A stretch of 64,000 bases of DNA from Terriglobales bacterium (GCA_035652095.1 DASREM010000056.1:199070-263069), one strand, 5' to 3'. Positions 34,356 through 52,127 are shown, counted from the first letter of the stretch. Numbers and translations: made by a program. Notes: generated by a model from the sequence alone, not told the origin.

Positions 34356-35597
34356 TCAGCTCGCGACTTCCACTCCACTCGGGCGCATGATCGGCAGTCG
34401 CACCAGGAATGTTGTACCGCGTCCAGCCGAGCTTTCCACGTCGATTTTCCCGTCATGTTCCTCGACAATCCGCTTGGCCAGCGACAGGCCCAGGCCCGTT
34501 CCATTCCCCTTGGTGGTGTAGAAAGGCCGGAAGATGTTGGGCAGGTGCTCCGGCGCAATGCCGCGCCCAGTATCGGAGACCGCGATTGCGGCGTAACCAC
34601 CATCTTCCGTGATCTCTACCGTGATCGTTCCGTGGCCTTCAATCGCCTGGATGGAATTGAGCAGCAGATTCAGCAGGACCTGGTGAATTTGATCGCTATC
34701 ATGCTCAACTTCGGGAAGCGCAGGGTCCTTCTTGAGTTCAATCTTGATCGCCTTCGACAATGCCTGCTGCCGCGCCAGCATCACCGAATGCTCAACCGTC
34801 GTATTCAGATCGCTGCGCCGAATCTCCGGAGGATGTGGCCGCGCGGTCTGCAGCAGATCGGTGATGATATGGTTGATCTGTGCGATCTCCTGGCGCACAT
34901 CCTTGACTACCGCCCGTGCCGGACTCGTGGATGGCAAGTCGCGTCCGACAATTTCGATCACCCCGGCGATTCCTGCGAGAGGGTTCCGAATTTCATGAGC
35001 TAATCCGGTAGCCAGTTCTCCCAGCGTGGCCAGATGTTCCGCGCGTGACATCTGTGTCTGATGCAAGCGATGGATCTCCTCCCGGCTCTCGCGCAACTGC
35101 TGGACCATGCGGTTGAAATTCCTTCCCAGATCGCCGATTTCGTCATTTCGGGTGTCGAAGCTCACCCGGACGTTCAAGTCTCCTTCGCCAACGTGCCCGA
35201 TCTTTTCCTGGAGCTCTACCATCGGGCGCTGTACAAAGACGGCAAGAACAAAAAGCAGGGCTGCGCAAATGGCGACCGCTCCCGCGCCCGCAACGTAGAG
35301 AACAGTGTGGCGCTCCGTATCGCGCCATGACACCGTCGCCAGCATGAACAACAGCAATCCATTGAACAAGACAAATGCCACGGGAAGGATCGCCTTCAAC
35401 TGCCAATTCACGCGGAAGAACGATACCCCGGAACGCTCTTGGGCCCTTCGCAGGCTGATGTCGCGGCCGGCGCCGGAAGCAGGCGCGATGCCCCGCAACT
35501 TCTCCGAGGCAAAACGGACGGAAGCGGTTCCCGGTTCCGCTTCCGTCCGATTCTGTTGTTCGGAAAGCCGCATTTGCTTTTGATCAAGCATATGCAT
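34356..35597 (-). CDS. Sensor histidine kinase (2 TM with minimal loop, HAMP, HisKA, HATPase_c; NtrB-like)
   Basis: ORF 34356..35726. The start (35597 or 35591) overlaps the ccsA stop. HAMP region [16 protein letters not shown]-box [17 protein letters not shown]...[18 protein letters not shown]. Confidence 0.85.
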
Positions 35598-36984
35598 GCA
35601 ATCCCGACAACAGATACGTAACCCCGAAGAAAGTGAACATGACCACTCCAAAGCCAAGAATGGCGAAGTAGGCTGCACGCCGGCCCCGCCATCCGCGCGT
35701 GATGCGCATGTGCAGATAGCCGGCATAGACCAGCCAGGTGATGGCGGCCCAGGTTTCCTTCGGGTCCCAACTCCAGTACGAGCCCCAGGTGCGGTTCGCC
35801 CAGTAGGCTCCGGCCGCGATCATCAGGGTGAGCAGCGGGAAGGCAATCGCGATCGTCTTGTAGGTGATCCGGTCCAGGTCCTCCGAGGAGGGCAACATTC
35901 TCTCCAGGTCCTGGCGCCGCCACAGCAACAGCAGATACAGGAGCGAGGCGAAAATTCCTCCCACCAGTCCCGACAGGATGAATGGGCTCGCTTGCAGGCT
36001 GGTGGGAAACAGTCCATCCACATCCAGCGATGGATAACGTCCATCACGCACTCGCAGCAGGAAGAACACCAGCGACAGCGCCTGAAGGAGGATGCTTACA
36101 AACACCGCGCGGTTAGCGATCGCCAGGAAGTTCTCATCCTCTTTCAACCGAAAAGCCAGGTAGAGCGCGAATGGTGCCGCCACTGCGACCAGCACTACCA
36201 GCATCAACCAGCCCAGCTCAGGAATGACAACAAAAAGGCGCATGCCCTTGGCCACGAACATTTCAGATTTCTGTTCCGGGTTCCAGCCAATCACGTTCAG
36301 GCCCCCCCACTTTTCGAAGCGGGTCAGGATTCCGGCATAGATGGCAATCGTAAAAAGGCTGGTGGCCGCCAGGAACGTCTCGGTTTTCATCTGATCCTGA
36401 ATGAGAAACATCATGGCCAATGCAAAACTCAGCGCGCAGGCCGCGTAGGCCAGCATGGCTAGAGTCACATGCACGTGCAGCCATGTGGATTGCAGCGCCG
36501 GAACCAGCGGATGGACATCGGTGCGCAGCAATTGCATCAGCACCACGCCAACGATCGCCACCGGCATGGTGACCGTGCCGATCACTTTTACTCCGTACTT
36601 CTTTTCTGCAATGAGCGTCAGGACCGCCAGCGTCCACACGAAACTCAGCAACATTTCGTAGATGCTCGCAAACGGTGGGTGCCCCGCCTCGTACCAGCGG
36701 TGTGCGACCGCCCCAGTATTGGCCAGCAGTCCGGCCCAGGTGGCGAGCGACGCGAAGCGCACATAGGAGGCGACCCCGGTCACTCCGAATCCCAGATACA
36801 GCGAGCCCGCGGCCGCGTAAAAGATCAACGAGGCATAAAGCAGATTGGACTCATTCAGAAGATTGCCGCTCTTCACCACATTCAGAAATGCCATGAAAAG
36901 CAGGAACGCAACACTCAGTCCGACCATCACGACCAGGGTCGTTCCGGTGGCTGCGGGTTGCTGTTCCACTCTTGTACGTGCCAT
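35584..36984 (-). CDS. ccsA: Cytochrome c biogenesis protein CcsA/ResC (System II heme handling)
   Basis: WWD-type tryptophan-rich motif [21 protein letters not shown]. Polytopic membrane protein. AAGGAGGA SD upstream. Starts 19 nt after resB. Confidence 0.9.
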
Positions 36985-37002: not shown

Positions 37003-38460
37003 TTACCGGTTCCCGACTCCGGCCAATGAAGGTTCGTGCTCGTGCTCCGGGATGCACGTTTCTTTTTGCTGCTTCAGTTCCGACTGAATCTCTTCCACCA
37101 GCTTGCGGAACTTGTGTTCGAAAACATCTTTGTTCTTGTTGGCCGCTCCGCCCACCCAGAGTTGCAGGGTGCCATTGGCGTCGTGGACTACCGTTGCCCA
37201 GAACCGCGTGTGAACCAGGTAGAAGACGATCGCCAGTCCGAGCCCCATCAAGATCACGCCTGCCCACACCGCCCATTGACCCGGCTCATGTGAAACCTGC
37301 AGGCCCGTGAAGTAGGCCATCTTCAAATCCTTGGGCTCGAACTTGTACGGCGATGCCGCGTTCTGCTCGAAACCTTCGATCGCCGGAATCCAGTAGTTCA
37401 CCGACTTTCCGGACTTCCTGGATTCGACAATGAGGTGAGCTGCGGGATTGTCTACTTGAGTGGATCGCGTGTAGATCTGTCCGTCTCGCACCACGTAATC
37501 CGGAATAAACTCGGCGAACTTCACCGTGGTGTCCGGATCCAGCTGCGCGACTTCGTCCACATTCAGGCTGATCTCCTGGGTTCCAGCTTTGTCGGAGGTG
37601 GCGTTCAGCACCAGCTTGTCCACCTTGCCGGTCATTCCGTAACTGGATTGATAGAAGCGGATGCCGCCGTAGACCAGGGGATCGTTGACAACGATCTCTT
37701 TGCGCAGAGTGTCGCGGCCGGCGTCCACCACCACCAGCTTCGACCACCATTTCTTGGGCGAGCCGTCGGTGTAATTCTCCTGGCCGGCAGCTTCACATCG
37801 AATGGCGATCGGAAGCACGCGCGTGCTGCCATCGCGCATTTGGACCTGGTTTGAAGTTTCCCCGCGGGTCAAAGAGATAAATCCGCGCCATCCCCAGACC
37901 GCATCCACGATTCCGCCCAGGAAGATGAGCAGCAGGCTGGCGTGGACGATGTAGACCGCGAATTCCGAGATGCGATGTTTTTCGGCGTACAACGAGGTGC
38001 GATGCTCGCTGGTTACGCGCTCTGGTTTCAAGTGCATGCGCCGGAAGGCCCGCTCGGCGGCAGCGATCGCAAACGCTTCGTCGCGGACCGCAAGTCGGAC
38101 CTGGTTTGGAAGCGCTTTCCGGAAAATCTCATCCGTGCTCTTGTAGGGCCGCGCGACGTATCGCCAGGCGTTTGGGAAGCGCTCGATGGATGCCGCGACG
38201 ATGCTGAAGCTCACGGCCACTAACAGCAGCACGAACCACCAGGCATGAAAGATGTCGGTCAGCCCGAGCGCATCCAGCAGCTGCAACATCTGCGGCGAGT
38301 ATGCGCGCTGCATCTCGTCGGGCTCGGTGACGGGCCTCTGAAGAATGATGGTGCCCGCTGCCGAAACGATTACGACCAGGATCAGAAGGATCACGCCGGT
38401 CTTGATCGAACTGACGGTTTGCCAGAATTTGCGACTTGCCCGTGCCAAGCTCCCAGCCAT
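37003..38460 (-). CDS. resB: Cytochrome c biogenesis protein ResB/CcsB (System II)
   Basis: N-terminal FWQTVSSIKTGVILLILVVIVSAAGTII. Large soluble domain and C-terminal TM segments. Position immediately upstream of ccsA is typical. Confidence 0.85.
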   Translation of the reverse strand: MAGSLARASRKFWQTVSSIKTGVILLILVVIVSAAGTIILQRPVTEPDEMQRAYSPQMLQLLDALGLTDIFHAWWFVLLLVAVSFSIVAASIERFPNAWRYVARPYKSTDEIFRKALPNQVRLAVRDEAFAIAAAERAFRRMHLKPERVTSEHRTSLYAEKHRISEFAVYIVHASLLLIFLGGIVDAVWGWRGFISLTRGETSNQVQMRDGSTRVLPIAIRCEAAGQENYTDGSPKKWWSKLVVVDAGRDTLRKEIVVNDPLVYGGIRFYQSSYGMTGKVDKLVLNATSDKAGTQEISLNVDEVAQLDPDTTVKFAEFIPDYVVRDGQIYTRSTQVDNPAAHLIVESRKSGKSVNYWIPAIEGFEQNAASPYKFEPKDLKMAYFTGLQVSHEPGQWAVWAGVILMGLGLAIVFYLVHTRFWATVVHDANGTLQLWVGGAANKNKDVFEHKFRKLVEEIQSELKQQKETCIPEHEHEPSLAGVGNR

Positions 38461-38966: not shown

Positions 38967-39776
38967 GTGAAGTACTCGCAGAGAACGCTCCTGATGCTCC
39001 TGATGGTGGTTCTGGCAACTGCCATGCCTTTGGCAGCGACCGAACACCCGGTGAAGCTCGAAAAGGATGCCGACTGCGCCTCCTGCCACGAGGACAAGGC
39101 GAAGGGCAAAGCAGTGCATTCGGCCATCGCCATGGGTTGCACCACTTGTCACGACGTGAAGACCCAGGGCGAAACCACTACAGTGGAATTCACCACCCCC
39201 AAAGATCAGCTCTGTTTCACCTGTCACGAAAAATCCAAGGAAGAAGTTCTTCACGGGCCTTACGAAAAAGGTCAGTGCGTGACTTGTCACGATCCCCACA
39301 CCAGCGACTTCCCCAAGCAGTTGCGAGCTGAGGGCAACCCGCTGTGCCTCGAATGTCATGCCGCCCGCGCCAAGATGGAAGACACGATCAGTCTCTTCGG
39401 CGGCAAGCAGTCCATGTCCAAGGCGGACTTCGAGCAGGCCCCCAAGATCGTTCCCGACACGATGACAAAGAAGGGGCATCCGTTCTCACGTCATCCCATT
39501 GCCGATGTTCCCGACCCGGTGCGGAACGAGAAGATGTCCTGCCTGAGCTGCCATCAATCCCACGCAGGCGCGCAGTCGAAGCTCATCACCACCGCCAAGA
39601 CCAACAACGGCGACATATGCGAGGCGTGCCACCAGACATTCGAAGCCAAAATGCACAACGATATGCAACAGAAGTTCGGCCCCATCGAAGAGAAGAACCG
39701 CAAAGACGTGGAAGACCAGTTCAAGAAACAAGTTCAGGAGCGGCCGGCTGCTCCTCCCAAGAAGGGGTCGAACTAG
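38967..39776 (+). CDS. Heptaheme c-type cytochrome (Cyt A), secreted
   Basis: GTG start preceded by GGCGGAGG. Signal peptide MKYSQRTLLMLLMVVLATAMPLAA. Seven CXXCH motifs: CASCH, CTTCH, CFTCH, CVTCH, CLECH, CLSCH, CEACH. Lys/Glu-rich C-terminal tail. Confidence 0.9.
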   Translation: MKYSQRTLLMLLMVVLATAMPLAATEHPVKLEKDADCASCHEDKAKGKAVHSAIAMGCTTCHDVKTQGETTTVEFTTPKDQLCFTCHEKSKEEVLHGPYEKGQCVTCHDPHTSDFPKQLRAEGNPLCLECHAARAKMEDTISLFGGKQSMSKADFEQAPKIVPDTMTKKGHPFSRHPIADVPDPVRNEKMSCLSCHQSHAGAQSKLITTAKTNNGDICEACHQTFEAKMHNDMQQKFGPIEEKNRKDVEDQFKKQVQERPAAPPKKGSN

Positions 39777-39778
39777 CC

Positions 39779-40831
39779 ATGAAAAAATTTCACAAGACGC
39801 TGATCAGTACCCTCCTGGGAATCGCAGCCCTGTGGATGCTTCCCCAACCCGCAGCCGCGAAGGACAAGCAGCAGCCCGCCGCTCCCACAAACCTGGTGTG
39901 GCCGTTGCCTCCGGACAAGCCGAGGCTGAAATTTCTGGAGATGATTACCAACAACTTCGATGTCGAACCCAAGAAGAAACTGTCCTGGGTGGACAAGATG
40001 GTCGGCAATGCCGACCCCAACATTCCGGAAACTTTCGAGCGCGCGACCGGAGTGGCGGCCGATTCCAAGGGCCGGGTCTTCGTAGTATCCGCGCAGCGCC
40101 AGATGCTCTACATCATCAGCAAAGAGAAGCATGAGGTCATCCGGGTCCGTGGCGATCGCGGGTTGGTCTTCAAAACTCCCTTGGGAGTGGTGGTGGACTC
40201 GCAGGACAACTTCTATGTTGCCGACGCCAGCCTGGCTTCGGTGATGAAGTTCGACTCGCAAGCGCATCTGCAAGCTGCGATCGGTTCTGATGCCGGGTTG
40301 AAGAACCCGACGTTCCTGGCCCTCGACGAAGGTCGCCGTCGCCTGTTCGTGGTGGATTCCCACCTGCACCAGGTCCTGATCTTCAACCTGGACACGCTGC
40401 AACTGGAGAGCACCGTCGGCAAGCGCGGGGAGAAGCCCGGCCAGTTCAATTACCCGGTCGGGATCGCGGTCGGTCCTGATGGCAGTTTCGCGGTTACCGA
40501 TACCGGAAGTTGCTCGGTCGAAGTCTTCACCGCCGACCTCAAGTTTGTTCGCCGTATCGGACGCCAGGGCACGCGGGCGGGTGAGTTCGTTCGGCCCAAG
40601 GGCATCGCTTATGACAGCGAAGGCCACATCTGGGTCGTGGATTCCGCATTCAACAACGTCCAGATCTTCAACCCGGACGGAAAGCTCCTGATGTTCGTGG
40701 GTTCGCATGGACAGAACGCCGGCGAATTCAGCGTGCCGGTGGGGATCTACATTGACAAGAAAAACCGGGTGTACATCAGCGACAACCTGAACGCCCGGGT
40801 CCAGATTTTCCAGTTCCTGGGAGGGAACTGA
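39779..40831 (+). CDS. NHL-repeat six-bladed beta-propeller protein (NHL-1), secreted
   Basis: ORF 39344..40831. The ATG at 39779 lies 2 nt after the Cyt A stop. Signal peptide MKKFHKTLISTLLGIAALWMLPQPAAA. Repeated blades of the type G.F..P.G[IV]A.D..G...V.D....V..F. Confidence 0.85.
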   Translation: MKKFHKTLISTLLGIAALWMLPQPAAAKDKQQPAAPTNLVWPLPPDKPRLKFLEMITNNFDVEPKKKLSWVDKMVGNADPNIPETFERATGVAADSKGRVFVVSAQRQMLYIISKEKHEVIRVRGDRGLVFKTPLGVVVDSQDNFYVADASLASVMKFDSQAHLQAAIGSDAGLKNPTFLALDEGRRRLFVVDSHLHQVLIFNLDTLQLESTVGKRGEKPGQFNYPVGIAVGPDGSFAVTDTGSCSVEVFTADLKFVRRIGRQGTRAGEFVRPKGIAYDSEGHIWVVDSAFNNVQIFNPDGKLLMFVGSHGQNAGEFSVPVGIYIDKKNRVYISDNLNARVQIFQFLGGN

Positions 40832-40934
40832 CATGAGTTCTGTTCTGCACGTTCGTGCCTTACAGAAATCAACAAGCAGTACTGCTGCAGTAGAACTACG
40901 TTCGAGTTGTACAACTCAAAAAGACGGAGGTCTT

Positions 40935-41636
40935 ATGAAATTCATGACGAAAGTCGGCGTACTGGTACTCCTTGTGGCGCTGGTCACCACGATGGGTTTC
41001 GCCAAGGCGTCGAAGAGTTCCATGGTGAACTCGAAGCACGACCTGCGCTCGACGTATAACGCAGCGACGTTCACGCTGTGTAACTTCTGCCACGTGGCTC
41101 ACAAGACCGTGGCTGACACTTATCCGAGCAACATCGGCCCCTTGCTCTGGAACCACACGCTGTCGAGTGCGACTACATACGGCGTATATACCAGTAATAC
41201 ATTTGCAGCTTATGGGACCGATATCTCGGACCTCGGTCCGCTGAATGCGGGAGCCTACGTAAGCAGCAATCTGTGCCTGAGCTGCCATGACGGAACCGTG
41301 GCGGTCAATTCATGGTATGCACCGCCAGCCTGCCTTCCCACTTATGGGCCTTGCCCGCAGGGCACGACGTTTGTCCCGAACGACGCAAGAGTCACCGATC
41401 TGACCAACACTCACCCGGTGAACTTCACGTACTACGGACAGCCGTGGATCAGTTCTGCGCACGTATTGGCACCCGCCAATGCGAATTTCGTAGATGGCGC
41501 GGGCGAAATCCCACTGGAGACCGGCAAGATGCAGTGCGCGACCTGCCATGACCCGCATAACGGCGGTTCTGGCATCTTCTCGCAGACGTTCCCGACGCAA
41601 GCCAGCGGAACCTTCTGCACCTATTGCCACCTGTAA
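40935..41636 (+). CDS. Tetraheme c-type cytochrome (Cyt B), secreted
   Basis: ORF 40833..41636. ATG at 40935 follows GGAGG. Signal peptide MKFMTKVGVLVLLVALVTTMGFA. Four CXXCH motifs: CNFCH, CLSCH, CATCH, CTYCH. The N-terminal SKHDL...CNFCHVAH module is shared with Cyt C. Confidence 0.85.
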   Translation: MKFMTKVGVLVLLVALVTTMGFAKASKSSMVNSKHDLRSTYNAATFTLCNFCHVAHKTVADTYPSNIGPLLWNHTLSSATTYGVYTSNTFAAYGTDISDLGPLNAGAYVSSNLCLSCHDGTVAVNSWYAPPACLPTYGPCPQGTTFVPNDARVTDLTNTHPVNFTYYGQPWISSAHVLAPANANFVDGAGEIPLETGKMQCATCHDPHNGGSGIFSQTFPTQASGTFCTYCHL

Positions 41637-41644
41637 GTTCATGC

Positions 41645-41669
41645 GAGAGAGGCGCCCGGCGCCTCTCTC
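41645..41669 (+). promoter_or_regulatory. Strong intra-operon hairpin (perfect 12-nt arms) between Cyt B and the barrel gene
   Basis: GAGAGAGGCGCC-C-GGCGCCTCTCTC followed by CTCTTTC. Located 9 nt after the Cyt B stop and 34 nt before the barrel ATG. Confidence 0.5.
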
Positions 41670-41702
41670 CTCTTTCACCCGAGTAAGGAACCGGAGAGGG
41701 AA

Positions 41703-43556
41703 ATGAAATCGGGAAACACAATCCGGATCCTGGTGACGGCGGGCCTTCTCTCCCTGGGTTTGTGCCAGGCCCAGGAACTGCAAGGCTGGCACCTCAGAAG
41801 CACCATCGGGTTCGACTGGTCCAGGGACAGTTTCAATTCCATCAGCAGTACCTTCCCCGAAAACAGCACACCCGCAGGCAGTATCGGCGGCGAGGTGGGA
41901 ATGGACCTCAGCGGCATCGTGATGGATCCGAAGTTCCTCACCTTTGACAGCAATTTCAACTTTTCTCACAATGCAATCTCCACCGGGGCGACCGATTACG
42001 GCGATGGATTGCTGAGTGGAGGAATTAACCTCAGTGCGCTGCCCGGCAGCCATTACCCGCTTGAGGTTTACTACCAGCGCAGCGGTGCCGATACCAACGG
42101 TGATCTGTTCGGGTCCAATACCAACACCGCGCAATTCCGGGTTCGCGAGACCCTCGACTTCAGAAACGTGCCCCACATTGTTCTCGCTTACAACCAGAAC
42201 AGCAACGACGTGAAACTGGTGACCTCGCTGACCGACACCAGCTACAAGCAATCCGACGTGGGCATTCAGGCCAACGACCGCACCGCCGGTTGGTCCTGGA
42301 ATGCGGGATTCAATGTTGGGAAGTTCGATTCGACGGCCATTGGCGACCTGGCCCTCGCCGGAGATACGCACCAGGACTACCGCACCCTCGACGCTCGCGC
42401 GTACCGCTCGCTGTTTTCAGGTAAGGGAGTTCTCAGTTCGGACTTTTACAAGCAACATTATTCTTTCGACTTCCCCGGAACCGGCACCTCGCTGACCGAT
42501 AGCCTGTTGCTCTCCGAGAGTCTGATGGTGCAGCACACGGAGAAGCTCTCGACACACTATTCGTACTCCCTGTCGCGCCAGAGCGTGGTGAATGACTTCA
42601 CGCCTGCTCCAGGAGGCTTGACGGTCCTGAATCTGCCCGCCCTGAACTCGCATACGGTGAGTACCGGGGTGGACTACCAGTGGTTTAAGCCCATCCGCGT
42701 GTTTGAAACTGTCCGCTACGATCGCCTGTCGCCTTTTTCCGACACCTTCGAATCGCAGACTTCCTATCTGCAATCGTCGTCAGGGGTTACGCTGCAAAAG
42801 AGATTTCGCGGCTTCGACGTTAACGCCACCTATGCAGGCCAATTCCAGAGGCTGGGAACCAACCTGGAAAATTTCGGGAACACGTTCTCCAGCAACGTGG
42901 ACGCCCGCATCGGATGGGGGGATGTGAAGAAGCTGCACGTGGCCGGTACTTACCGCTACAACCGGCTGAATTTCGTGCAGCAACTCGGCGGCTTCACCCG
43001 GTACAAAATCGCCGGCGTGGAGGCGGAGACCACTCGATTCTGGGGCGTGCGCCTGCGCGGCGGAGTCGAGCATGGCAGCGTGGACATCCTCAATATCTCT
43101 GGCGACACTTCCCGCTCCTACAATAATGTGAGTTTTGCGCTGGAGTCCCGCCGCTACCAGTTCATGGCCAGCAGGGGCATGGAAGATGGCGCTGGCTCGA
43201 TTTTCCCAAACCCGCTGATCGGTCAGTTCTTTATCGCTACGCCGCTTCCGGTTTCGCAGTTGATTGGGACCCCACTTCTGAATCGGAATACTACCAGCAC
43301 CAACTTCAGCTTCACCGGACGCCCGAAGAACAACCTCCAGATCACCGCGTTCTTCCGCAAGGAAAATGATCTACTGTTCAGTTCGACGCAGGATTACCGG
43401 CTATGGGAAGTTCGTGGACAATACAATATTGGTCGCATCAGCATTGATGCCGGAGTAGGGAACATCCGGACGACGATCGATCAGCAGAACAATCTGAGCG
43501 GATTGGCAATCAATCGCTACTGGTTCCGCATCCGCAGGACATTCAACTTTTTCTGA
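41703..43556 (+). CDS. Large outer-membrane beta-barrel-like protein (617 aa)
   Basis: GGAGAGGGAA SD upstream. Signal peptide MKSGNTIRILVTAGLLSLGLCQA. Alternating-hydrophobicity, Gly/Ser/Asn/Tyr-rich sequence. C-terminus ...RIRRTFNFF has the terminal aromatic typical of OMPs. No recognisable enzymatic motif. Confidence 0.65.
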   Translation: MKSGNTIRILVTAGLLSLGLCQAQELQGWHLRSTIGFDWSRDSFNSISSTFPENSTPAGSIGGEVGMDLSGIVMDPKFLTFDSNFNFSHNAISTGATDYGDGLLSGGINLSALPGSHYPLEVYYQRSGADTNGDLFGSNTNTAQFRVRETLDFRNVPHIVLAYNQNSNDVKLVTSLTDTSYKQSDVGIQANDRTAGWSWNAGFNVGKFDSTAIGDLALAGDTHQDYRTLDARAYRSLFSGKGVLSSDFYKQHYSFDFPGTGTSLTDSLLLSESLMVQHTEKLSTHYSYSLSRQSVVNDFTPAPGGLTVLNLPALNSHTVSTGVDYQWFKPIRVFETVRYDRLSPFSDTFESQTSYLQSSSGVTLQKRFRGFDVNATYAGQFQRLGTNLENFGNTFSSNVDARIGWGDVKKLHVAGTYRYNRLNFVQQLGGFTRYKIAGVEAETTRFWGVRLRGGVEHGSVDILNISGDTSRSYNNVSFALESRRYQFMASRGMEDGAGSIFPNPLIGQFFIATPLPVSQLIGTPLLNRNTTSTNFSFTGRPKNNLQITAFFRKENDLLFSSTQDYRLWEVRGQYNIGRISIDAGVGNIRTTIDQQNNLSGLAINRYWFRIRRTFNFF

Positions 43557-43566
43557 TAGGTGGGCC

Positions 43567-44649
43567 TTGAGTTTATTGACTATTTCGCGCCGGCGGCTCT
43601 TCTGGACAGCGGGAATCGCGTTTGTACTGGCGACACTGTGGTCGTGGCCGGCCAGCGACGCCGCCTCCAAGCCCCCGGAGGTTTTGTTGCCCGCGCAGCT
43701 GGAATGGGTCGGCACGTTGCGCAGCGCCGCTGATGTTACTCCGAAGCCGGGCTTCTTCAAAAAGATGGTGAAGAAGATCGTCGGCCTTGATGACCGCGAT
43801 CGCGCCATGCTCATGCCCTATGGCATCGCTGTGGACTCGCAGGGGCGGGTGCTGGTTGTGGATACCCGCGAACGCCAGGTGCACGTCTTCGATGCGCAGC
43901 GCAAGAAGTACAAGACCTTCCACGCTCCCGATCGTGATCCCTTTGCCGCTCCCATCGCCATCGATACCGACGCCGAAGGCAGGATTTACGTCTCCGATTC
44001 GGTGCGCGCGCGAATCTTCGTATTCACCCCCGACTTCAAGTTTGTCCGCACCCTGGGCGCGATCAGTAAAGATGAGAGTATCTTCAAGCGCTGCACCGGG
44101 CTGGCGATCGATAGGGGACAAGGCAAGCTGTACGTGGTCGACACCGTTGCCATGAACGTGGTGACGATGACGCTGGATGGCAAGGTCCTGGGCCGGATGG
44201 GCAAGCCAGGGGACGGTCCGCTTGAATTCAATTACCCAACCCAGATCGCGGTAGCGCCGGACAGTTCGCTGTGGGTGATGGACTCCCTGAACTTCCGGGT
44301 GCAGCACCTCGATGCCAACGGCACGGTTCTTTCCGCGTTTGGACGCCTGGGCGACAGCATCGGCGATTTCGATAAGCCGAAGGGCATCTCGCTTGATAAC
44401 CAGGGCCGCGTCTACGTGGTCGAAGGACGCAACGACCGCGTTCAGGTCTACAGCCCGGAAGGGAAGCTGTTGTTCTTCTTCGGGCGTACCGGCAATGCCG
44501 ATGGAGAGTTTTTCCTTCCCACCGGCATCACGGTGGACCGCGAAAACAAGATTTACGTCGCCGATAGCTACAACCGCCGCGTCGCCATCTTTCATGCCAA
44601 GCCAGGCGCGGACGGCGGAATGTTCTCCGGGCCCGCGGGAGGACAGTGA
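43567..44649 (+). CDS. NHL-repeat six-bladed beta-propeller protein (NHL-2), paralogue of NHL-1
   Basis: TTG start assumed, as there is no upstream ATG. The N-terminus ISRRRLFWTAGIAFVLATLW has an RR-containing n-region. The blades align with NHL-1, for example GKPGDGPLEFNYPTQIAV versus GEKPGQFNYPVGIAV, and FDKPKGISLDNQGRVYVV versus FVRPKGIAYDSEGHIWVV. Confidence 0.8.
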   Translation: MSLLTISRRRLFWTAGIAFVLATLWSWPASDAASKPPEVLLPAQLEWVGTLRSAADVTPKPGFFKKMVKKIVGLDDRDRAMLMPYGIAVDSQGRVLVVDTRERQVHVFDAQRKKYKTFHAPDRDPFAAPIAIDTDAEGRIYVSDSVRARIFVFTPDFKFVRTLGAISKDESIFKRCTGLAIDRGQGKLYVVDTVAMNVVTMTLDGKVLGRMGKPGDGPLEFNYPTQIAVAPDSSLWVMDSLNFRVQHLDANGTVLSAFGRLGDSIGDFDKPKGISLDNQGRVYVVEGRNDRVQVYSPEGKLLFFFGRTGNADGEFFLPTGITVDRENKIYVADSYNRRVAIFHAKPGADGGMFSGPAGGQ

Positions 44650-46532
44650 TGCGGCTTCGGCTGGCCTTCATACTCGCGCTAGTGATGGCGGCGGTGGTGG
44701 TGGGGCGGCTTTCCGCTGCCCGGAACAAGCAATTCATCGCCAACACCAAGCACGATTTCCGGATCACCTCGGGGGCAGGCATCCGCTCCACGTCGAAGCA
44801 GGATGTCTGCATGTTTTGCCATACTCCGCATAACGCCGGGCCGCCCACGACCGGGATGTGGAACCGGAAACTTTCGCAGCGTGAATTTCCCGGCTACAAC
44901 AGCAGCACGCTTCAGTCCACCATCACCCCGATCAATGCGCAGGACGCATCGAAACTCTGCCTGAGCTGCCATGATGGCACCATCGCGCTTGGCGACACAC
45001 AGAACGAGGGATTGATCCAGTTCGTGCAGGGGGCGAGTTACACCTTGCCTCCCAACTCGACGGCGAACCTGGTGGGGGCAAACGGAACCTTTGCCGACGA
45101 TCATCCATTTGGCTTCGTTCCAAGGCGAACCGCAGACATTCACGATCCACCGCCGGGCGATGCGGTGCATCTCGACAGCAGCGGCAAAGTGCAGTGCACC
45201 AGTTGTCATGATCCACACCAGGAGTCGATTGATTCAGTGTCGGACAAATTCCTGGTCAAGTCGAATGACTCCTCTCTGCTTTGCCAGAGCTGCCATTCCA
45301 CGCAGGGCTGGGCAAGGTCGTCCCATTCCCGACCGCCCGACCTGGCCGAGGACCTGCGCTACACCAGCACGCAGGGCGCGCATACCGGCTATACGGGCGT
45401 GGGAAAAAATGGATGCGAGAGTTGTCACCGGCCGCATTCCGCGCAAGTGGGCCAGCGGCTTCTGAAATTAGCCGAAGAGAATACCTGTTACCAATGCCAC
45501 GATGGGTCGGTCACCACGATCGGCATCAAGAACGAGTTCGTGAAGACCTACCGCCACCCGGTGCAGACTGTCTCGGGTATACACGACGATTCCGAGAGCC
45601 CGACGTCCGCGCTGTACCCGATGCCGGAAATCAGCCCCGGTGCGGTGCGCCATGCCGAGTGCATGGATTGTCACAATGCCCACTATGCCAATAACACTCC
45701 GGGACAGGCGCCAGTGGTAAGCGGCTCAGTGCTGGGAGTGAAAGGCCAGTCGCAGGGGAACACCTTCCTGCCAATCGCGAGGAACGAATACGAGATCTGC
45801 TTCAAATGTCACGCTGACAGCGCCAATCGTCCGCAGGCGACTGACACGGGCACGGGCGGAATCGGCTTTGGAAGAAATCCGCAGCGCCAGTTCGACGCGG
45901 GAAATCCGAACAAGGGCAACGCTCGCGTGGAGTTTTCTTTCGGCGTGTCGTACCACCCGGTAGTGCGCCCGGCGAGCCTCTCGAGCGGCGTGGGGGGAAT
46001 GGTGCCCAGCCTGCGCCCAGCTCCGGTCAGTCCCGGTGGGCTTGCGCTTCCGAATCGTACGCTGTCTTCCTCCAGCTACATCTACTGCACGGATTGTCAT
46101 AACAGCGACACGGGACGGAACCTGGGAGTGGGGACTTCGGGCGCATCCGGCCCGCACGCCTCCAACATTGCCCATCTGCTCGAGCGGCAGAACATGCTGG
46201 AACCGCCACCCGCGCTGCCGGGCAAGAGTTCGGCAGGCGTGCCCTTTTCGGTCAGCAACTATGGGCTCTGCGACAAGTGTCACGACGTGCAGAACAGCAT
46301 CCTGCGAGACGTGAGCTTCAAGTATCACAGCACGCACACGCAGCAGGACGGCGCATCGTGCTCCACCTGCCATGATCCGCACTCGTCGTCTTCTCCGATG
46401 CTGATCAATTTTGACTTGAGCATCGTGGCGCCGAACAGCGCGGGTCAACTCGCTTTCGTGCAGAGCGGCCCCCGGCATGGCAGCTGCAGTCTCAGCTGCC
46501 ACGGGCAAGACCATAAGAGTTCCACCTACTGA
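44646..46532 (+). CDS. Large multiheme c-type cytochrome (Cyt C; 11 CXXCH + 1 CX3CH)
   Basis: The start (GTG 44646 or ATG 44649) overlaps the NHL-2 stop. Signal/anchor MMRLRLAFILALVMAAVVVGRLSAA. CXXCH motifs: CMFCH, CLSCH, CTSCH, CQSCH, CESCH, CYQCH, CMDCH, CFKCH, CTDCH, CDKCH, CSTCH. Terminal CSLSCH. Many are of the C..CH.PH / C..CHD type, as in doubled-CXXCH cytochromes. Confidence 0.9.
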   Translation: MMRLRLAFILALVMAAVVVGRLSAARNKQFIANTKHDFRITSGAGIRSTSKQDVCMFCHTPHNAGPPTTGMWNRKLSQREFPGYNSSTLQSTITPINAQDASKLCLSCHDGTIALGDTQNEGLIQFVQGASYTLPPNSTANLVGANGTFADDHPFGFVPRRTADIHDPPPGDAVHLDSSGKVQCTSCHDPHQESIDSVSDKFLVKSNDSSLLCQSCHSTQGWARSSHSRPPDLAEDLRYTSTQGAHTGYTGVGKNGCESCHRPHSAQVGQRLLKLAEENTCYQCHDGSVTTIGIKNEFVKTYRHPVQTVSGIHDDSESPTSALYPMPEISPGAVRHAECMDCHNAHYANNTPGQAPVVSGSVLGVKGQSQGNTFLPIARNEYEICFKCHADSANRPQATDTGTGGIGFGRNPQRQFDAGNPNKGNARVEFSFGVSYHPVVRPASLSSGVGGMVPSLRPAPVSPGGLALPNRTLSSSSYIYCTDCHNSDTGRNLGVGTSGASGPHASNIAHLLERQNMLEPPPALPGKSSAGVPFSVSNYGLCDKCHDVQNSILRDVSFKYHSTHTQQDGASCSTCHDPHSSSSPMLINFDLSIVAPNSAGQLAFVQSGPRHGSCSLSCHGQDHKSSTY

Positions 46533-46538
46533 GCTTTG

Positions 46539-46973
46539 TTAGTGGGCTTTCTGCAGCGTCTCTGGGACTTTCTGTTCTATCACCTGCTGCTTGTAGCAGT
46601 ATTGTTTCTCGTTGTGCCCCATCCCGGTAGGATCGGTTTTCTGCTTGGGGGTGAGCACGATGACGGAATCACGTTTTCCCGGGATGCCGCCCTTCACGGG
46701 CCCCTTGGCACGATAGCTGCCAGAGATGCCGCTTTCGGCATAGTGCCCAGAGGTAAATTTGATGGCTCCCGACGCCGGAGTGTAAGAGTAGTTGCCCTTG
46801 GAGCCGGAAACTTCGTAGGTTCCGTCCGCGTGCATTTGCAGGTTGGCAATATCGAAGAACTGTCCCTCCCCGACCACCACGCAGCCATAGCGGCCTGCCG
46901 GCGCTTTCTCCTTCTTCTGCTGAGCGATTGCCGGCATAGAAATCAGGATTAGAAGCATGAGAACACTTTTCAC
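46539..46973 (-). CDS. Small secreted hypothetical protein
   Basis: ORF 46539..47030. GTG at 46973 is preceded by AGGGGAG, giving signal peptide VKSVLMLLILISMPAIAQQ. Convergent with Cyt C across a 6-nt gap. Confidence 0.45.
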   Translation of the reverse strand: MKSVLMLLILISMPAIAQQKKEKAPAGRYGCVVVGEGQFFDIANLQMHADGTYEVSGSKGNYSYTPASGAIKFTSGHYAESGISGSYRAKGPVKGGIPGKRDSVIVLTPKQKTDPTGMGHNEKQYCYKQQVIEQKVPETLQKAH

Positions 46974-46992: not shown

Positions 46993-48465
46993 TTATTTTC
47001 GTACGAGAATGATACATTGGCCGTCTTCATAAATGATTTCGTATTTGTCCAGGTTGGCCAGGATAAAAGTCAGGGCTACGCCCTTGGGTGCGAGGATGAC
47101 CTTTGCCTGATCCAACTGTGGATTTGTCAACCACGCGGGTTTTCCGTCCCAACTATCTTCCACCAAGGTCAGGAACTCGTCGCCGTAGAGATTGGTCCGG
47201 CCGTCGATGGCAACTTGCATCTCGGGAAGCTTCCAGATGAGGTACCCTCCCCAGTCCAGCAGGCTGAATAGAGGACCGCTGTAATGCGCGGATTCCAGGA
47301 AGTGGCAGGCCTGGGAGGGATAGATACTGTCTACCTGCGTCTTGAGTGCGTTCTCGTCGAAGTTAGGGCTCAGCGAAGCCGCGACTGCGATGACGAAACA
47401 CGTAATTACGAGGACGATCGGCTTGTGCCACTCCGGAGTTCTCGCGCCTGGCCGCCGGTCTGAAACCACTGCGAGGATTGCTAACCCCACCGTGACCAGG
47501 AACCACGAATCGCGCTCGGCACGAAATGCCGCCATGGTGAAAGCCACAAACAGAATGACAAATAGAGGGCGAAACTGCCGCCGGTAGCCTAACGACAACG
47601 CCACGACCAAGGCCAGCATGAGCTCGACGTAATCTTTTATCCGCCGGAAGTCCAGCGCCTGCAGTTCGATGATGATGTCGAAGGCTTTGGTCTGGGTCGC
47701 GTACTGCCAAACGACCGTGTAGATTCCGACGAAGTAAGGGTTAAGCAGCGTCGCCGCAAACGAAGCTGCGAGCAACTTCCAGAGAACCTGTGAGACGGCC
47801 CACTCCTCCGGACTGACCGGTTGCCGCAGCAGTTTTCGAATCCATGGCTCGGCTGCGGCAACCGCCAGGGTGAACAGACCGTAGACAAACTGGATGTGCA
47901 GGTTTGCCCACAGCAGATATAGCAAGGGAATCCACCAACCATAGCGGGCATTATGCTCGATTCGAGCTCGCAACAGATAGTCGAGCTGAAGGATAAAGAA
48001 CAGCACAGTGAACAGGCCGGGGCGTGGCCAGAGCAAAGGATAGGTGAGATATAAGCCGACCGCAGTCAGCGCGGCCGCAGGTATGGGCTCAACATAACGC
48101 GACAGCAGTCGCAGCAGAGCCCAGGAGATCACCAGGGCCATTAGCGCCGTGTAAAGAACGATCCCCCGCAAGCCCAGGATTCGGTAGAAGCCCCCTAATA
48201 GCAGTTCGAAGAGCCAACTATAGGCAGCCCAGGGGGCACCGGCGCGGGTATAGGAGAACGGGTCGCTATGCGGCAGTGCATGATGTTGCAAGATCCAATT
48301 CGCAGTCTGCAGATGCCAGCCTACGTCCGGATCAATCGCAGCATCGCCCTGGTGCAGGACCATGGCCGCTGGCGTTGCTAATACGGCAATTTGCGCCAGC
48401 ACGGAGATATGTTCTTTTTTCACGCGCAGCAGGCCGGCATGGCAGGGAATTTCTCCATGTCTCAT
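46993..48465 (-). CDS. Polytopic membrane protein, GT-C-fold glycosyltransferase-like (function unassigned)
   Basis: About 11-13 hydrophobic segments followed by a C-terminal soluble domain. An acidic loop (DPDVGWHL...HSDPFSY) near the first TM segments recalls GT-C enzymes. The family is not firmly recognised. Confidence 0.35.
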   Translation of the reverse strand: MRHGEIPCHAGLLRVKKEHISVLAQIAVLATPAAMVLHQGDAAIDPDVGWHLQTANWILQHHALPHSDPFSYTRAGAPWAAYSWLFELLLGGFYRILGLRGIVLYTALMALVISWALLRLLSRYVEPIPAAALTAVGLYLTYPLLWPRPGLFTVLFFILQLDYLLRARIEHNARYGWWIPLLYLLWANLHIQFVYGLFTLAVAAAEPWIRKLLRQPVSPEEWAVSQVLWKLLAASFAATLLNPYFVGIYTVVWQYATQTKAFDIIIELQALDFRRIKDYVELMLALVVALSLGYRRQFRPLFVILFVAFTMAAFRAERDSWFLVTVGLAILAVVSDRRPGARTPEWHKPIVLVITCFVIAVAASLSPNFDENALKTQVDSIYPSQACHFLESAHYSGPLFSLLDWGGYLIWKLPEMQVAIDGRTNLYGDEFLTLVEDSWDGKPAWLTNPQLDQAKVILAPKGVALTFILANLDKYEIIYEDGQCIILVRK

Positions 48466-48663
48466 TATCGGGCGCGGGCAAACATCGCTCTGTGATCCAG
48501 ATCACTGAGCAGCAAGGGGCATAGACGATTCCTGGGATGCCCTCCCGAGATGACATCGCTTCCCCAAATGAAACCGTCGGGCTTTTCTGTTCCGGAATTC
48601 TTTGCATTACCTCCGTTTAAAGTCCCCCTCTTTCCGATGGAACGGGTGAACGGAGTGAACCTC

Positions 48664-50244
48664 ATGCCCGAATCCGAGAAAAAGCAAAGGTCTTCGAAAG
48701 ATGAATCACCGGACAGGCTCGCGCACCTGGCGCGGGCGGTCGAGCAGTCGGCAGACCTGGTCCTGATCACGGATCGGAACGGGGTGATCGAGTACGTGAA
48801 TCCCGCGTTTGAGACCTTGACTGGATATACGCGGGACGAAGCCGTTGGCCGCAACGCGCGCCTGTTGAAGTCCGGCCTGCACGATCCCGCATTCTATGAA
48901 GAGTTGTGGTCCACCATCCTGGCGGGTTCCGTCTTCCGCGGAGCTCTTGCAGACCGCAAGAAAAATGGGGAAATTTTCTTCCTGGAGAAGACCATTACCC
49001 CGATCCGCGATGCGAACAACGAAATCGTGCGCTTCATCTCCAATGATCGCGATATCACCGACCGCAGAAGGCTCGAGGCCCAGTTGCAGCAAGTCCAGAG
49101 GATGGAGGCGCTCGAAGCTTTTGCTGGCGGCGTCGCCCACGACTTCAATAACCTGCTCATGGTGATGAGCGCTTATGCCGAACTTACTCTGGAAGCGCTG
49201 TCCTCCGACAGCCCGCTAAGATCAAACATCAACGAAATCCTGCAGGCGACCCGCCGCGCCACTGACCTTACCCGCCAGCTGCTCGCATTCAGTCGCAAGC
49301 CGAAGAGCCTGGTTCAATCTTTGGATCTAAACTCCGTATTGCGAGACTTGGGGTGTGTGCTCCCCCGCCTTCTCGGCGAGAAGGTGCACCTTCAGATGGT
49401 GCTCGGGGAGGATTTGAGGAACGCGAAGGCCGATCCTGCCGAGATCGAGCAAGTCATTCTCAACCTGGCGGGAAATGCCCGGGACGCTATGCCAAACGGA
49501 GGCCACCTGCGAATACAGACCTCAATGGTTGAACTCGAGGAGAGCTATGTCCAACATCATGCCGTGGCCACTGCGGGCGAATACGTGCTACTTACGATGG
49601 TGGATTCCGGGGAGGGAATTGCCCCGGAGCACATGGCCCACATCTTTGAACCGTTCTACACGACTAAACCCAGAGGGAAAGGCACAGGGTTGGGCCTCGC
49701 TACTGCATACGCCGTGGTGAAGCAGTGTGGCGGACACATCTGGGTGTACAGCGAAAAAGGGCTGGGCACAACTTTCAAGATCTACATTCCCACGGTTGGG
49801 AAGAAACCGGCTCAGGCAAGCGTCTCTCTCGCCCCCGACGCTCCCTCCGGAACAGAGACCATTCTGCTTGTAGAGGACGATCCGGCGCTACGGAAATCCG
49901 AAATGGAATTCCTGAAAGCCAGCGGCTACACGGTTTTGGAGGCGTCTGATAGTGAGGACGCCGTGGAGACGGCGCGCAGCTATTCTGGCGTGATCCACCT
50001 CATGATCACCGATGTTGTCCTTCCGAAGATGGATGGAACTCTGCTCGCGGAAAAAGTGCTCGGACTGAGGCCACAAATGAAGCTGCTGTTTATCTCGGGC
50101 TTTGCAGAGCATAGCGTCTCGCAGCGCGGGCTGGTGAACTCCGAGGGGAATTTTCTCGAGAAACCGTTTACAAGGAGAATTCTAGCCGAGAAAGTACGTC
50201 AGATTCTCGGCGCTTCCGGCCGCGCCATGGCCGCATCAGTCTGA
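48664..50244 (+). CDS. Hybrid sensor histidine kinase (PAS, HisKA, HATPase_c, receiver)
   Basis: ORF 48550..50244. The start is uncertain (48550, 48637 or 48664; 48664 has a GGAG upstream). PAS block VLITDRNGVIEYVNPAFETLTGY. H-box GGVAHDFNNLL. DSGEGI...GTGLGLATAYAVV. Receiver TILLVEDDPALR...LMITDVVLPKMDG. Confidence 0.85.
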   Translation: MPESEKKQRSSKDESPDRLAHLARAVEQSADLVLITDRNGVIEYVNPAFETLTGYTRDEAVGRNARLLKSGLHDPAFYEELWSTILAGSVFRGALADRKKNGEIFFLEKTITPIRDANNEIVRFISNDRDITDRRRLEAQLQQVQRMEALEAFAGGVAHDFNNLLMVMSAYAELTLEALSSDSPLRSNINEILQATRRATDLTRQLLAFSRKPKSLVQSLDLNSVLRDLGCVLPRLLGEKVHLQMVLGEDLRNAKADPAEIEQVILNLAGNARDAMPNGGHLRIQTSMVELEESYVQHHAVATAGEYVLLTMVDSGEGIAPEHMAHIFEPFYTTKPRGKGTGLGLATAYAVVKQCGGHIWVYSEKGLGTTFKIYIPTVGKKPAQASVSLAPDAPSGTETILLVEDDPALRKSEMEFLKASGYTVLEASDSEDAVETARSYSGVIHLMITDVVLPKMDGTLLAEKVLGLRPQMKLLFISGFAEHSVSQRGLVNSEGNFLEKPFTRRILAEKVRQILGASGRAMAASV

Positions 50245-50309: not shown

Positions 50310-52127
50310 ATGAATCCAATTGTGTCCCCCGTCCGCGAAGACTCCTCTAGTGCGGCCCGTCGCCCTGGCCGGCCCACCTGCTCGCTCCTGATCATCACCG
50401 CAGTGTGGCTTGTGATTTACGCGGGAAGTATTTTCAGTCCTGCCCTGCTGGACGATGCAGATTCGGTGCACGCGGAAGCCGCCCGCGAAATCCTTCTTCG
50501 GCACGACTGGGTTACGCTGCATATCGATGGCCTGCGATACCTGGAGAAAGCCCCCTTGATGTACTGGGGCATCGCATCCAGCTTCTTGACTTTCGGGGTT
50601 GCGGAATGGAGCGCGAGGTTGCCCCTTGTTCTTGGTGTGCTTGCCTCGCTGCTGGCCGTGTACGCCTTTGGCCGAAAAGCTTACGGCGAACCGGGCGGCT
50701 TCTGGTCGGCCATGGTGATGGCTACTGCGATCGGTCCTTATCTGTTCACCCGGTTCCTGATTCCCGATGTTCTGGTCGGGCTTTGGCTGACTCTCACCTT
50801 CTTATTTTTTCTTGAGACGCTGAAAGATGATGCTCCCTCTCGTCTCGCATGCTGGGGCATGGCGGCTGCGACCGCGCTCAACGTGCTCACCAAAGGACTG
50901 ATTGGCGTCGTCTTTCCAATTGCAGTGATTGGACTGTTCCTGCTGGTGACAGGAAATTTAAAGCACTTGCTTCGTTTGAGATTGGTTTCCAGCACGTTGG
51001 TGTTCCTTGCCATTGGAGCGCCTTGGCATATCCTGGCGGCCCTTCGCAATCCGGACCAAGGTGGTGTTCGGGGTTTCCTCTGGTTTTACTTCGTCAACGA
51101 GCACTTCATGCGCTACCTGAACAAACGGATTCCCCGCGATTACGACACCGTGCCTTTTCTGGTCTTCTGGGGATTGCTCTTGGTGTGGGTTTTTCCCTGG
51201 AGCGCATTTCTTCCGCAGGCGCTGCGTGAGGTTCCGTGGCGCCACCTAAGATCCAGGTTAACAAGAGCGCAGATGGCAAACCTGCTCTGCTTGCTATGGG
51301 CCTTGGTCATCCTGGTTTTCTTCAGCTTTTCCAGCCGTCAGGAGTACTACACCATTCCGGCATTGCCGGCGCTGGCGCTGCTGGTCGGAGGATGGCTTGG
51401 CCGAACCGCGAAAGAGCATAATGCCGGAGTCCGCGCGTCTCTCATTCTGTTTGTGATCGGAAGCGTTGCTGCTGTCGCTGCGTTTGTTGTGCTTGTTTTG
51501 TCGCAGCCTCCGCCACCCGGAGTCGAGCTGGCGAGTCTGCTCAACATGAGAAGCGCACAGGACTATGCCCTTAGTTTTGACCATATCTTCGACCTGACTC
51601 CTCAGGCGTTCGGGATGTTTCGCGCCCCTTTGCTGGGGACGGCCCTGGGGTTGTTTGCCGGCACCGGCTTGAACTGGTGGCTCCGCCGCCGCAACCTGCA
51701 CAGGGCAGGGAATTATGCGTTGGCCGGAATGATGATGGTTCTGCTGTTTTGTGTTCATTCCGCCCTGGTCACGTTTTCACCCATTCTGTCGTCGAAGCAG
51801 CTTGCGCTGGCCATCAAGCCCCACCTGGCACCGTCCGATGAGGTTGTGATCGACGGTGAATATGAACAAGGCTCCACGCTGAATTTTTATCTTGGAGTTC
51901 CGGTTCGCGTGCTGCACGAAAGGTCTGCGAACCTCTATTACGGGTCACTATTTCCGGATGCGCCGGATGTGTTCGAAACGCAAGAAACCTTTTTGCGGTT
52001 GTGGGATGGTCCCCGGCGCGTGTTCCTGTGGACGAGCGAGAAAGACCCGAAAGCGCTTCGCAACGCCTCCAGCTTTCTGGTAGCGCACAGTGGCGGCAAA
52101 TCTGTGTTTACCAATCAGCCGCTTTGA
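50310..52127 (+). CDS. ArnT/PMT-like glycosyltransferase (GT39/GT83, PMT_2 domain)
   Basis: LLDDADSVHAEAAREIL...YLEKAPLMYW is the typical first periplasmic loop of ArnT-like GT-C enzymes. More than 10 TM segments and a C-terminal soluble domain. Confidence 0.75.
   Translation: MNPIVSPVREDSSSAARRPGRPTCSLLIITAVWLVIYAGSIFSPALLDDADSVHAEAAREILLRHDWVTLHIDGLRYLEKAPLMYWGIASSFLTFGVAEWSARLPLVLGVLASLLAVYAFGRKAYGEPGGFWSAMVMATAIGPYLFTRFLIPDVLVGLWLTLTFLFFLETLKDDAPSRLACWGMAAATALNVLTKGLIGVVFPIAVIGLFLLVTGNLKHLLRLRLVSSTLVFLAIGAPWHILAALRNPDQGGVRGFLWFYFVNEHFMRYLNKRIPRDYDTVPFLVFWGLLLVWVFPWSAFLPQALREVPWRHLRSRLTRAQMANLLCLLWALVILVFFSFSSRQEYYTIPALPALALLVGGWLGRTAKEHNAGVRASLILFVIGSVAAVAAFVVLVLSQPPPPGVELASLLNMRSAQDYALSFDHIFDLTPQAFGMFRAPLLGTALGLFAGTGLNWWLRRRNLHRAGNYALAGMMMVLLFCVHSALVTFSPILSSKQLALAIKPHLAPSDEVVIDGEYEQGSTLNFYLGVPVRVLHERSANLYYGSLFPDAPDVFETQETFLRLWDGPRRVFLWTSEKDPKALRNASSFLVAHSGGKSVFTNQPL

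Follow-up and report, generated by a model that had tools for sequence, protein, structure and literature searches.

A 64,000-nucleotide stretch from a Terriglobales bacterium (GCA_035652095.1 DASREM010000056.1:199070-263069; hereafter the window) carries at positions 38967-46532 a six-gene operon, in which three multiheme cytochromes are interleaved with two NHL propellers and a large beta-barrel. The question raised by this locus is whether its products form a route for electrons through the outer membrane and, if so, of which kind. An earlier note on this DNA had proposed an undescribed trans-envelope electron conduit. We propose, with a probability of about 0.6, that its products make up a machine for extracellular electron transfer at the outer membrane, one of the OmcE/Uet/EET1 family. 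The conduit reading was broadly right, but it missed that the cytochrome CytB and the N-terminus of the cytochrome CytC are homologues of the nanowire subunit OmcE; because of this homology the likeliest mechanism moves from a static Mtr-like conduit towards a filament-forming system. The composition is not undescribed, since it matches the published uet, minimal omcE and Acidobacteriota EET1 clusters. The genes are as follows (aa, amino acids):

38967-39776, plus strand: CytA, 269 aa, seven CXXCH motifs
39779-40831, plus strand: NHL-1, 350 aa, no heme motif
40935-41636, plus strand: CytB, 233 aa, four CXXCH motifs
41703-43556, plus strand: barrel protein, 617 aa, no heme motif, C-terminus ...RRTFNFF
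43567-44649, plus strand: NHL-2, 360 aa, no heme motif
44646 or 44649 (start) to 46532, plus strand: CytC, 627-628 aa, eleven CXXCH motifs and one CSLSCH

The genes are separated by gaps of 2, 103, 66 and 10 nucleotides (nt) and one overlap of 1-4 nt, and CytA, CytB and CytC together pack 22-23 heme sites into 7.5 kb. This layout, the heme counts and the TFNFF end of the barrel protein are in the sequence as the earlier note gave them. The clustering of heme sites is not due to chance, because the rest of the 64-kb window contains no open reading frame (ORF) with a heme motif, bar one with a single CXXCH; the three cytochromes of the operon are its only multiheme cytochromes. Paired_CXXCH_1 is matched by all three and NHL by both propellers (Pfam, ~1e-30 for the latter). 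The N-terminal export signals attributed to the six proteins are seen, as judged by eye, and a lipobox occurs in none of the six, the cytochromes included. The parts of a trans-outer-membrane electron-transfer module are present, in agreement with the porin-cytochrome logic invoked before.

CytB is the least expected of the six proteins. It matches OmcE of Geobacter sulfurreducens (PDB 7TFS, 232 aa) over its full length (phmmer, E=1.7e-8), with ~30% identity. When CytB, the head of CytC, the OmcE proteins of G. sulfurreducens and D. soudanensis and acidobacterial homologues were aligned, the residues H35, C49xxC52H53, H56, C114xxC117H118, H160, C201xxC204H205, H208 and C228xxC231H232 (CytB numbering) were invariant. 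Hence, eight heme ligands, four from CXXCH motifs and four further histidines, are common to CytB, the N-terminal domain of CytC and both solved OmcE sequences; four CXXCH motifs and four further histidines are the conserved features of OmcE homologues (Petersen et al., bioRxiv 10.1101/2025.10.22.684050). In size (233 aa, in a class of ~200-240 aa) and in the register of its heme ligands CytB falls within the OmcE class. Its AlphaFold2 model, built without hemes and of low confidence (predicted local distance difference test, pLDDT, 55), has a single significant Foldseek match in the PDB, which is 7TFS (E=2.4e-4, template modelling score, TM, 0.51). The genomic context points in the same direction. 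The published selector for nanowire-competent OmcE homologues is a large outer-membrane barrel with a beta-propeller gene nearby (Petersen et al.), and CytB has the barrel gene directly 3′ and NHL genes on both sides. We propose that CytB is an OmcE-like tetraheme and a candidate nanowire subunit. Cryo-electron microscopy structures exist for the OmcE subunit; part of the cohesion of its filaments comes from histidine-heme ligation between successive subunits.

The second OmcE relative is found at the head of CytC. The first ~210 residues of this protein (about 10-217) match 7TFS with E=4e-14 and 9yuq_N with E=8e-14; the latter can be taken as the OmcE bundle of D. soudanensis, because 'putative multiheme cytochrome c' is the name of all 16 chains in the entry and a preprint describes such a structure. 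CytC would then consist of an N-terminal OmcE-like tetraheme domain, which retains all eight OmcE heme ligands, followed by an eight-heme extension. Its probable twelfth heme site is the C-terminal CX3CH motif CSLSCH at 46484-46501. Exactly eleven CXXCH motifs plus one CX3CH near the C-terminus are found in 50 of 52 full-length CytC homologues from several phyla, in which each of the twelve sites is at least 96% conserved. Since the CX3CH motif is so widely kept, the "undecaheme" family is probably dodecaheme, and for UetJ the published figure of 11 may miss one heme. In a distance tree one clade unites all 53 CytC-type heads and takes in only 3 of the 71 stand-alone tetrahemes; this near-monophyly indicates an ancient head fusion, as opposed to a duplication within the locus. 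Co-evolution of the head with CytB was neither supported nor refuted, the nearest tetraheme coming from the head's own locus in 1 of 36 cases. We assign CytC to the UetJ/EET1 type.

The 617-aa protein finds no family in Pfam or NCBIfam and is annotated as a hypothetical protein of a Terriglobales metagenome-assembled genome (MAG), where its contig measures 528 kb, the order belonging to the phylum Acidobacteriota. Its AlphaFold2 model, of moderate confidence (pLDDT 64), shows 28 antiparallel strands by DSSP, and the Foldseek ranking is headed by MtrB (6r2q_B, E=4.4e-12, TMq 0.50), followed by TonB-dependent receptors and LptD. The large barrel predicted by the earlier note is borne out in the model, and we propose an outer-membrane barrel of ~28 strands, of the UetC or EET1-porin type, that would act as sheath or anchor for a membrane-crossing cytochrome. 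The family appears narrow at one-step sensitivity, because its profile collected 75 clusters among 1.84 billion representative proteins. When the Terriglobales family was set against individual barrels from other phyla in profile comparisons (hhalign), the probabilities were 0.2-63%, which is not significant, and Geobacter-type barrels, taken singly or as a two-sequence alignment, stayed below 2% against the Terriglobales and the iterated barrel alignments. As these direct comparisons failed, the homology of the barrels across phyla rests on stepwise iteration and conserved gene position.

CytA and the propellers also have counterparts in Geobacter. In the omcE cluster of G. sulfurreducens, CytA (Paired_CXXCH_1, E=7.5e-29) finds the 9-heme cytochrome with E=7e-32, and its best sequence match in the PDB is MtrA (6r2q_A, E=2.4e-8). 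It reaches no curated family cut-off, scoring 65.7 bits for the DmsE family TIGR03508, whose cut-off is 192. We propose that CytA is an exported heptaheme built of paired-CXXCH repeats of the MtrA/DmsE kind and serves as periplasmic electron feeder. NHL-1 (Pfam NHL, E=1.2e-30, and also DUF5128) matches the NHL lipoprotein of the same Geobacter cluster over its full length (E=1e-52), NHL-2 (Pfam NHL, E=4.5e-31) matches the Geobacter NHL protein with E=3e-45, and both match UetI-type propellers at ~1e-50. NHL-1 is proposed to be an exported six-bladed propeller and a scaffold or chaperone for an OmcE-fold cytochrome. The two propellers differ in their signals: that of NHL-1 is of the ordinary Sec type, whereas the signal region of NHL-2, MSLLTISRRRLFWTAGIAF... 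(43567-43680), contains a twin-arginine-like SRRxLF motif, and on that account NHL-2 might leave the cytoplasm folded via the twin-arginine (Tat) pathway.

The gene set recurs far beyond Acidobacteriota. One genome per species was scanned, more than 584 OmcE-like stretches were obtained, and in the best 80 loci ORFs were called and searched with the six window proteins and an iterated barrel profile; two copies of the window's own sequence bring this set to 82 loci. A same-strand barrel of about 600-700 aa was found with the iterated profile in 60 of the 82. Barrel, NHL protein and full-length CytC homologue occur together in 44 of the 80 external loci, spread over about 10 phyla: Acidobacteriota (14), Verrucomicrobiota (6), Desulfobacterota (5), Calditrichota (5), Bacteroidota (4) and Planctomycetota (3), with further carriers in Proteobacteria, Nitrospirota and Zixibacteria. 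In 31 of these 44 loci the genes for barrel, NHL protein and 12-heme cytochrome follow one another directly, in that order, and in 27 an OmcE-like tetraheme lies in the flanks. The NHL genes each adjoin one OmcE-fold gene, in the window as in most other loci, and ResB/CcsA are a conserved neighbour that also flanks the Geobacter omcE clusters and the uet-type loci. The survey proposed by the earlier note therefore finds strong synteny. Homology part by part, conserved heme ligands, barrel topology and synteny across phyla are in our view established for this module.

Several loci of the survey deserve mention in their own right. The six genes stand in identical order in L003 (JBLMXE010000301.1), whose CytB homologue, 61% identical, is by far the closest genome match; it is an 8.5-kb contig labelled Chlamydiota bacterium MAG, and looks like an Acidobacteriota contig that was binned wrongly. 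The locus L042 of Candidatus Frackibacter sp. WG13 (NZ_FOTT01000002.1; Halanaerobiales, Firmicutes) has two adjacent five-heme OmcE-like genes, with an NHL protein, a 14-heme cytochrome and ResB/CcsA in the vicinity and no barrel of the window family. A second acidobacterial variant (L020, L028, L033, L038, L045, L070 and L080) is made of a 16-heme cytochrome, an NHL protein, a 4-heme protein (305-337 aa) missed by the OmcE searches, the barrel, another NHL protein and the 12-heme cytochrome; in it a different cytochrome seems to take the place of the stand-alone OmcE-like tetraheme.

From these data we infer an order for the electron path, an occupant for the barrel, polymerisation of CytB, a role for the propellers, a direction of flow and an acceptor. 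In the model, heptaheme CytA would take the electrons that arrive in the periplasm and pass them to dodecaheme CytC, located in or on the 28-strand barrel, with which they would cross the outer membrane. The OmcE-like head of CytC would deliver them to the OmcE-like tetraheme CytB, which, by analogy with OmcE, may polymerise into an insulated heme filament through ligation of hemes by histidines of the neighbouring subunit. Each OmcE-fold cytochrome would have one of the two NHL propellers as its scaffold or chaperone, in the periplasm or at the outer membrane, and the adjacent ResB/CcsA would load the 23 hemes. The likely acceptor is organic matter, humic or particulate, or Fe(III).

Among the other explanations, the one that survives best assigns the barrel and the NHL propellers mainly to secretion and assembly of the cytochrome polymer, in the manner of an usher (cf. 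OscEFG for OmcS) and outside the electron path. Petersen et al. favour porin-mounted secretion and note large barrels in most OmcE and OmcS regions, and the Geobacter osc operon is reportedly proposed to supply factors for folding, secretion and morphology of OmcS. This explanation is compatible with the machine proposed here and does not exclude it. However, the 12-heme cytochrome is conserved beside barrel and propeller, directly so in 31 of the 44 loci, which argues that the wire passes the membrane at the barrel site. We give a mainly secretory role a lower probability.

A static porin-cytochrome conduit of the Mtr or Uet kind, without filament, would place CytA or CytC in the barrel and leave CytB as a monomeric tetraheme, extracellular or periplasmic, that serves soluble or surface acceptors. 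The similarity of the barrel to MtrB and of CytA to MtrA would be expected from it, and the authors who described the related clusters thought along these lines: the uet model has UetA and UetJ as discrete extracellular cytochromes with UetC as sheath, and EET1 was modelled as an Mtr-like membrane-spanning complex. Moreover, OmcE-like tetrahemes are very common (1284 protein matches, beside the genomic stretches counted above), and Petersen et al. warn that not all of them need polymerise. Against it speak the retention in CytB of the eight OmcE ligands, among them the histidine that is donated across the subunit interface in OmcE filaments, a gene context that is precisely the one used to pick nanowire-competent homologues, and a barrel that matches no MtrB/PioB family. 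A purely static conduit appears doubtful to us.

The same hardware could also work inwards, with Fe(II), reduced humics, cathodes or partner cells as the electron source. There is homology to uet-type components in CytC, in the propellers and in the barrel, uet is tied to cathode- and iron-oxidising bacteria (the electroautotroph Ca. Tenderia, and Gallionella), and Mtr-type conduits are reversible. Nevertheless, Terriglobales are organoheterotrophs in which EET1 from peat was read as respiratory export to organic matter, and the window contains neither autotrophy genes nor the cupredoxin or triheme Uet accessory genes. Although direction cannot be read from a sequence, we consider inward flow unlikely. 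A periplasmic multiheme enzyme, such as a reductase of nitrite, hydroxylamine, sulfite or tetrathionate, that merely has an unrelated porin as neighbour is highly improbable and was rejected, for the weak partial matches to NrfB, NrfH, HmcA and TmcA models lie far under curated cut-offs and reflect generic CXXCH repeats only, the operon has no CXXCK or other catalytic-heme motif, synteny with barrel and propellers across phyla would be unexpected for a soluble enzyme, and no characterised periplasmic enzyme family, orthology to which the earlier note had named as counter-evidence, reached its cut-off.

Against the filament-forming machine that we prefer, a number of points have to be weighed: (i) at ~30% identity between CytB and OmcE, conservation of the filament interface is not established, and the CytB model is of low confidence; (ii) filaments of this family have been demonstrated in Desulfuromonadia only, and the experimental evidence for the module is confined to Geobacter and Desulfuromonas, the role of the window operon being a prediction; (iii) the Geobacter omcE cluster encodes a 9-heme and an 8-heme cytochrome but lacks a homologue of the 12-heme CytC, and the propellers of Desulfuromonadia are lipoproteins while those of the window have no lipobox; (iv) the window barrel is tied to the barrels of other phyla only through transitive profile iteration and has no detectable relation to the 752-aa barrel of Geobacter; (v) no inner-membrane quinol dehydrogenase is present in the window, where no NapC/CymA-type gene was found, which extends to the whole 64 kb what had been noted earlier of CymA/ImcH/CbcL-type enzymes in the cluster; (vi) the accounts of uet and EET1 consulted gave no deletion or biochemical evidence; and (vii) the physiological importance of cytochrome filaments is itself reportedly disputed (PMC11077965).

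A further proposal, bolder and quite tentative, concerns the origin of the filament. The CytC/UetJ-type dodecaheme may be the missing base of OmcE-type nanowires, with its eight-heme tail passing through the barrel and its head templating the polymerisation of CytB, in which case the uet, EET1 and omcE clusters would be one system over at least 10 phyla. The head could act as a template since it keeps every heme ligand of the filament subunit, and CytB would be added to it through the inter-subunit His-heme bond of the OmcE filament. Petersen et al. see no candidate for a tip or stopper encoded in OmcE operons, and for that reason the CytC head may be an overlooked candidate for the filament base. 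If so, the wire would owe its attachment to the cell and its electrical contact with the periplasm to a single heteromeric assembly. Neither the conserved twelfth heme site nor the OmcE-like head as a filament-base candidate is stated in the literature consulted, and both are put forward here as hypotheses.

The surroundings of the operon were analysed in the same window. As had been noticed before, the operon diverges from resB-ccsA System II cytochrome-maturation genes, which lie upstream on the minus strand. The neighbouring genes are:

30967-32448, minus strand: sigma-54-type response regulator
34356-35726, minus strand: HAMP histidine kinase, adjoining ccsA
35584-36984, minus strand: CcsA-type gene, Pfam Cytochrom_C_asm, E=2.2e-48
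37003-38460, minus strand: ResB gene, Pfam ResB, E=7.6e-84
46993-48465, minus strand: 490-aa polytopic membrane protein, no Pfam family
48550-50244, plus strand: PAS hybrid histidine kinase
50310-52127, plus strand: PMT_2 glycosyltransferase, downstream of the operon
52164-53324, minus strand: GT2 (family 2 glycosyltransferase), downstream of the operon

The CcsA-type protein has 466 aa, and Cytochrom_C_asm matches only its C-terminal third (best residues 334-463); it has a long N-terminal extension, unlike its Geobacter counterpart of 283 aa. The signalling genes bracket the operon on both sides. Homologues of the 490-aa membrane protein adjoin the cluster in the Acidobacteriaceae loci L025, L028 and L045. 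The downstream glycosyltransferases parallel the GT2/4/39 glycosylation genes that lie 3′ of Geobacter omcE clusters, where OmcE is seemingly glycosylated (Petersen et al.). Scans for sigma-70 promoters, terminators and sigma-54 (-24/-12) promoters around the operon gave nothing above shuffled expectation, no sigma-54 motif being found upstream of CytA, and the weak hairpin at 46584-46601, right behind the CytC stop, is not significant.

How does the operon relate to the systems that already have names? With MtrCAB of Shewanella and the Pcc and Ext clusters of Geobacter it shares the logic of a large barrel combined with a paired-CXXCH cytochrome in the periplasm and an outer cytochrome, as well as the best matches of barrel and CytA, to MtrB and MtrA, respectively. 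It does not belong to them: the barrel has no MtrB_PioB match, TIGR03508 falls short as given above, TIGR03507, for OmcA/MtrC, gives 21 bits against a cut-off of 209, and no lipobox is present. The window module differs in having 28 strands instead of 26, two propellers, OmcE-fold cytochromes and no lipoprotein cytochrome. The porin-multiheme cytochrome cluster that He et al. (2017) reported from Verrucomicrobia, in which a porin is accompanied by a periplasmic cytochrome of eight hemes, is not equated with it. The interleaved propellers, the absence of a lipoprotein cytochrome and that of an inner-membrane partner, which had seemed to set the locus apart, are the hallmark of a family for which bioinformatic descriptions appeared in 2022, 2025 and 2026.

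The first of these descriptions is that of uet (undecaheme electron transfer), found in Ca. Tenderia electrophaga and Gallionella and proposed for electron uptake (Eddie et al., bioRxiv 10.1101/2022.05.06.490989; PMC10734462). In Ca. Tenderia it comprises tetraheme UetA, the peptidyl-prolyl isomerase (PPIase) UetB, UetC with a predicted barrel of 28 strands, the trihemes UetD, UetE and UetG, UetF, two NHL proteins (UetH, UetI) and the undecaheme UetJ, with ccsAB next to it. The comparison was made with two loci of the survey (L022 and L036) that have the exact uet gene order, PPIase and ResB/CcsA included. Their undecaheme matches CytC with E=2e-40 and their propellers those of the window at ~1e-50, and their barrel enters the window barrel profile at iteration 2 (E=5e-8). 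Tetraheme, 28-strand barrel, two NHL proteins, undecaheme-type cytochrome and adjacent System II genes are all present in the window. In contrast, between 38967 and 46532 no gene was found for a UetB-like PPIase, for the triheme c7 proteins UetD/UetE/UetG or for the cupredoxin UetF; heptaheme CytA stands in their place, the gene order differs, and the UetJ-type proteins (811-852 aa) are about 200 aa longer than CytC.

The second is the minimal omcE cluster of Desulfuromonadia, in which OmcE and a large barrel are joined by a pair of propellers and a pair of multiheme cytochromes, beside resB/ccsB (Petersen et al.), a six-part composition equal to that of the window operon. In Geobacter the locus runs purHDE, ppcA, resB, ccsB, the 9-heme and 8-heme cytochromes, the NHL lipoprotein, OmcE, the barrel of ~750 aa and glycosyltransferases, so that in G. 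sulfurreducens the local order NHL, OmcE, barrel is that of the window; in this locus comparison CytB matches Geobacter OmcE with E=1e-11. Contexts of the omcE type were reported in five phyla, Acidobacteriota not among them (Petersen et al.).

[quoted passage not shown] The order is the same, and the adjacent porin, NHL gene and large OmcE-like cytochrome correspond to the window genes at 41703-46532. The structural matches are alike as well, with a TM of 0.48 in that paper and 0.50 in the window for the barrel against MtrB 6R2Q, and with OmcE 7TFS for the cytochrome in both. Judged by gene order and structural matches, the locus has what defines EET1, that is, adjacent MtrB-like porin, NHL protein and large OmcE-like cytochrome in Terriglobales or UBA7540. 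The EET1 paper stresses a three-gene core, counts 13 heme motifs by a different scheme, and mentions neither a separate OmcE-like tetraheme such as CytB nor a link to uet. Terriglobales are among the most abundant bacteria of soil and peat, and an expressed electron-export machine in them would, following the argument made for EET1, help to explain the methane-free anaerobic production of CO2 in bogs. A statement that uet, EET1 and omcE clusters share one homologous module is not made in the literature consulted; to judge from the proteins compared here they appear to do so, over about 10 phyla that include Acidobacteriota, and the window locus would link these three separately named systems as one widespread module.

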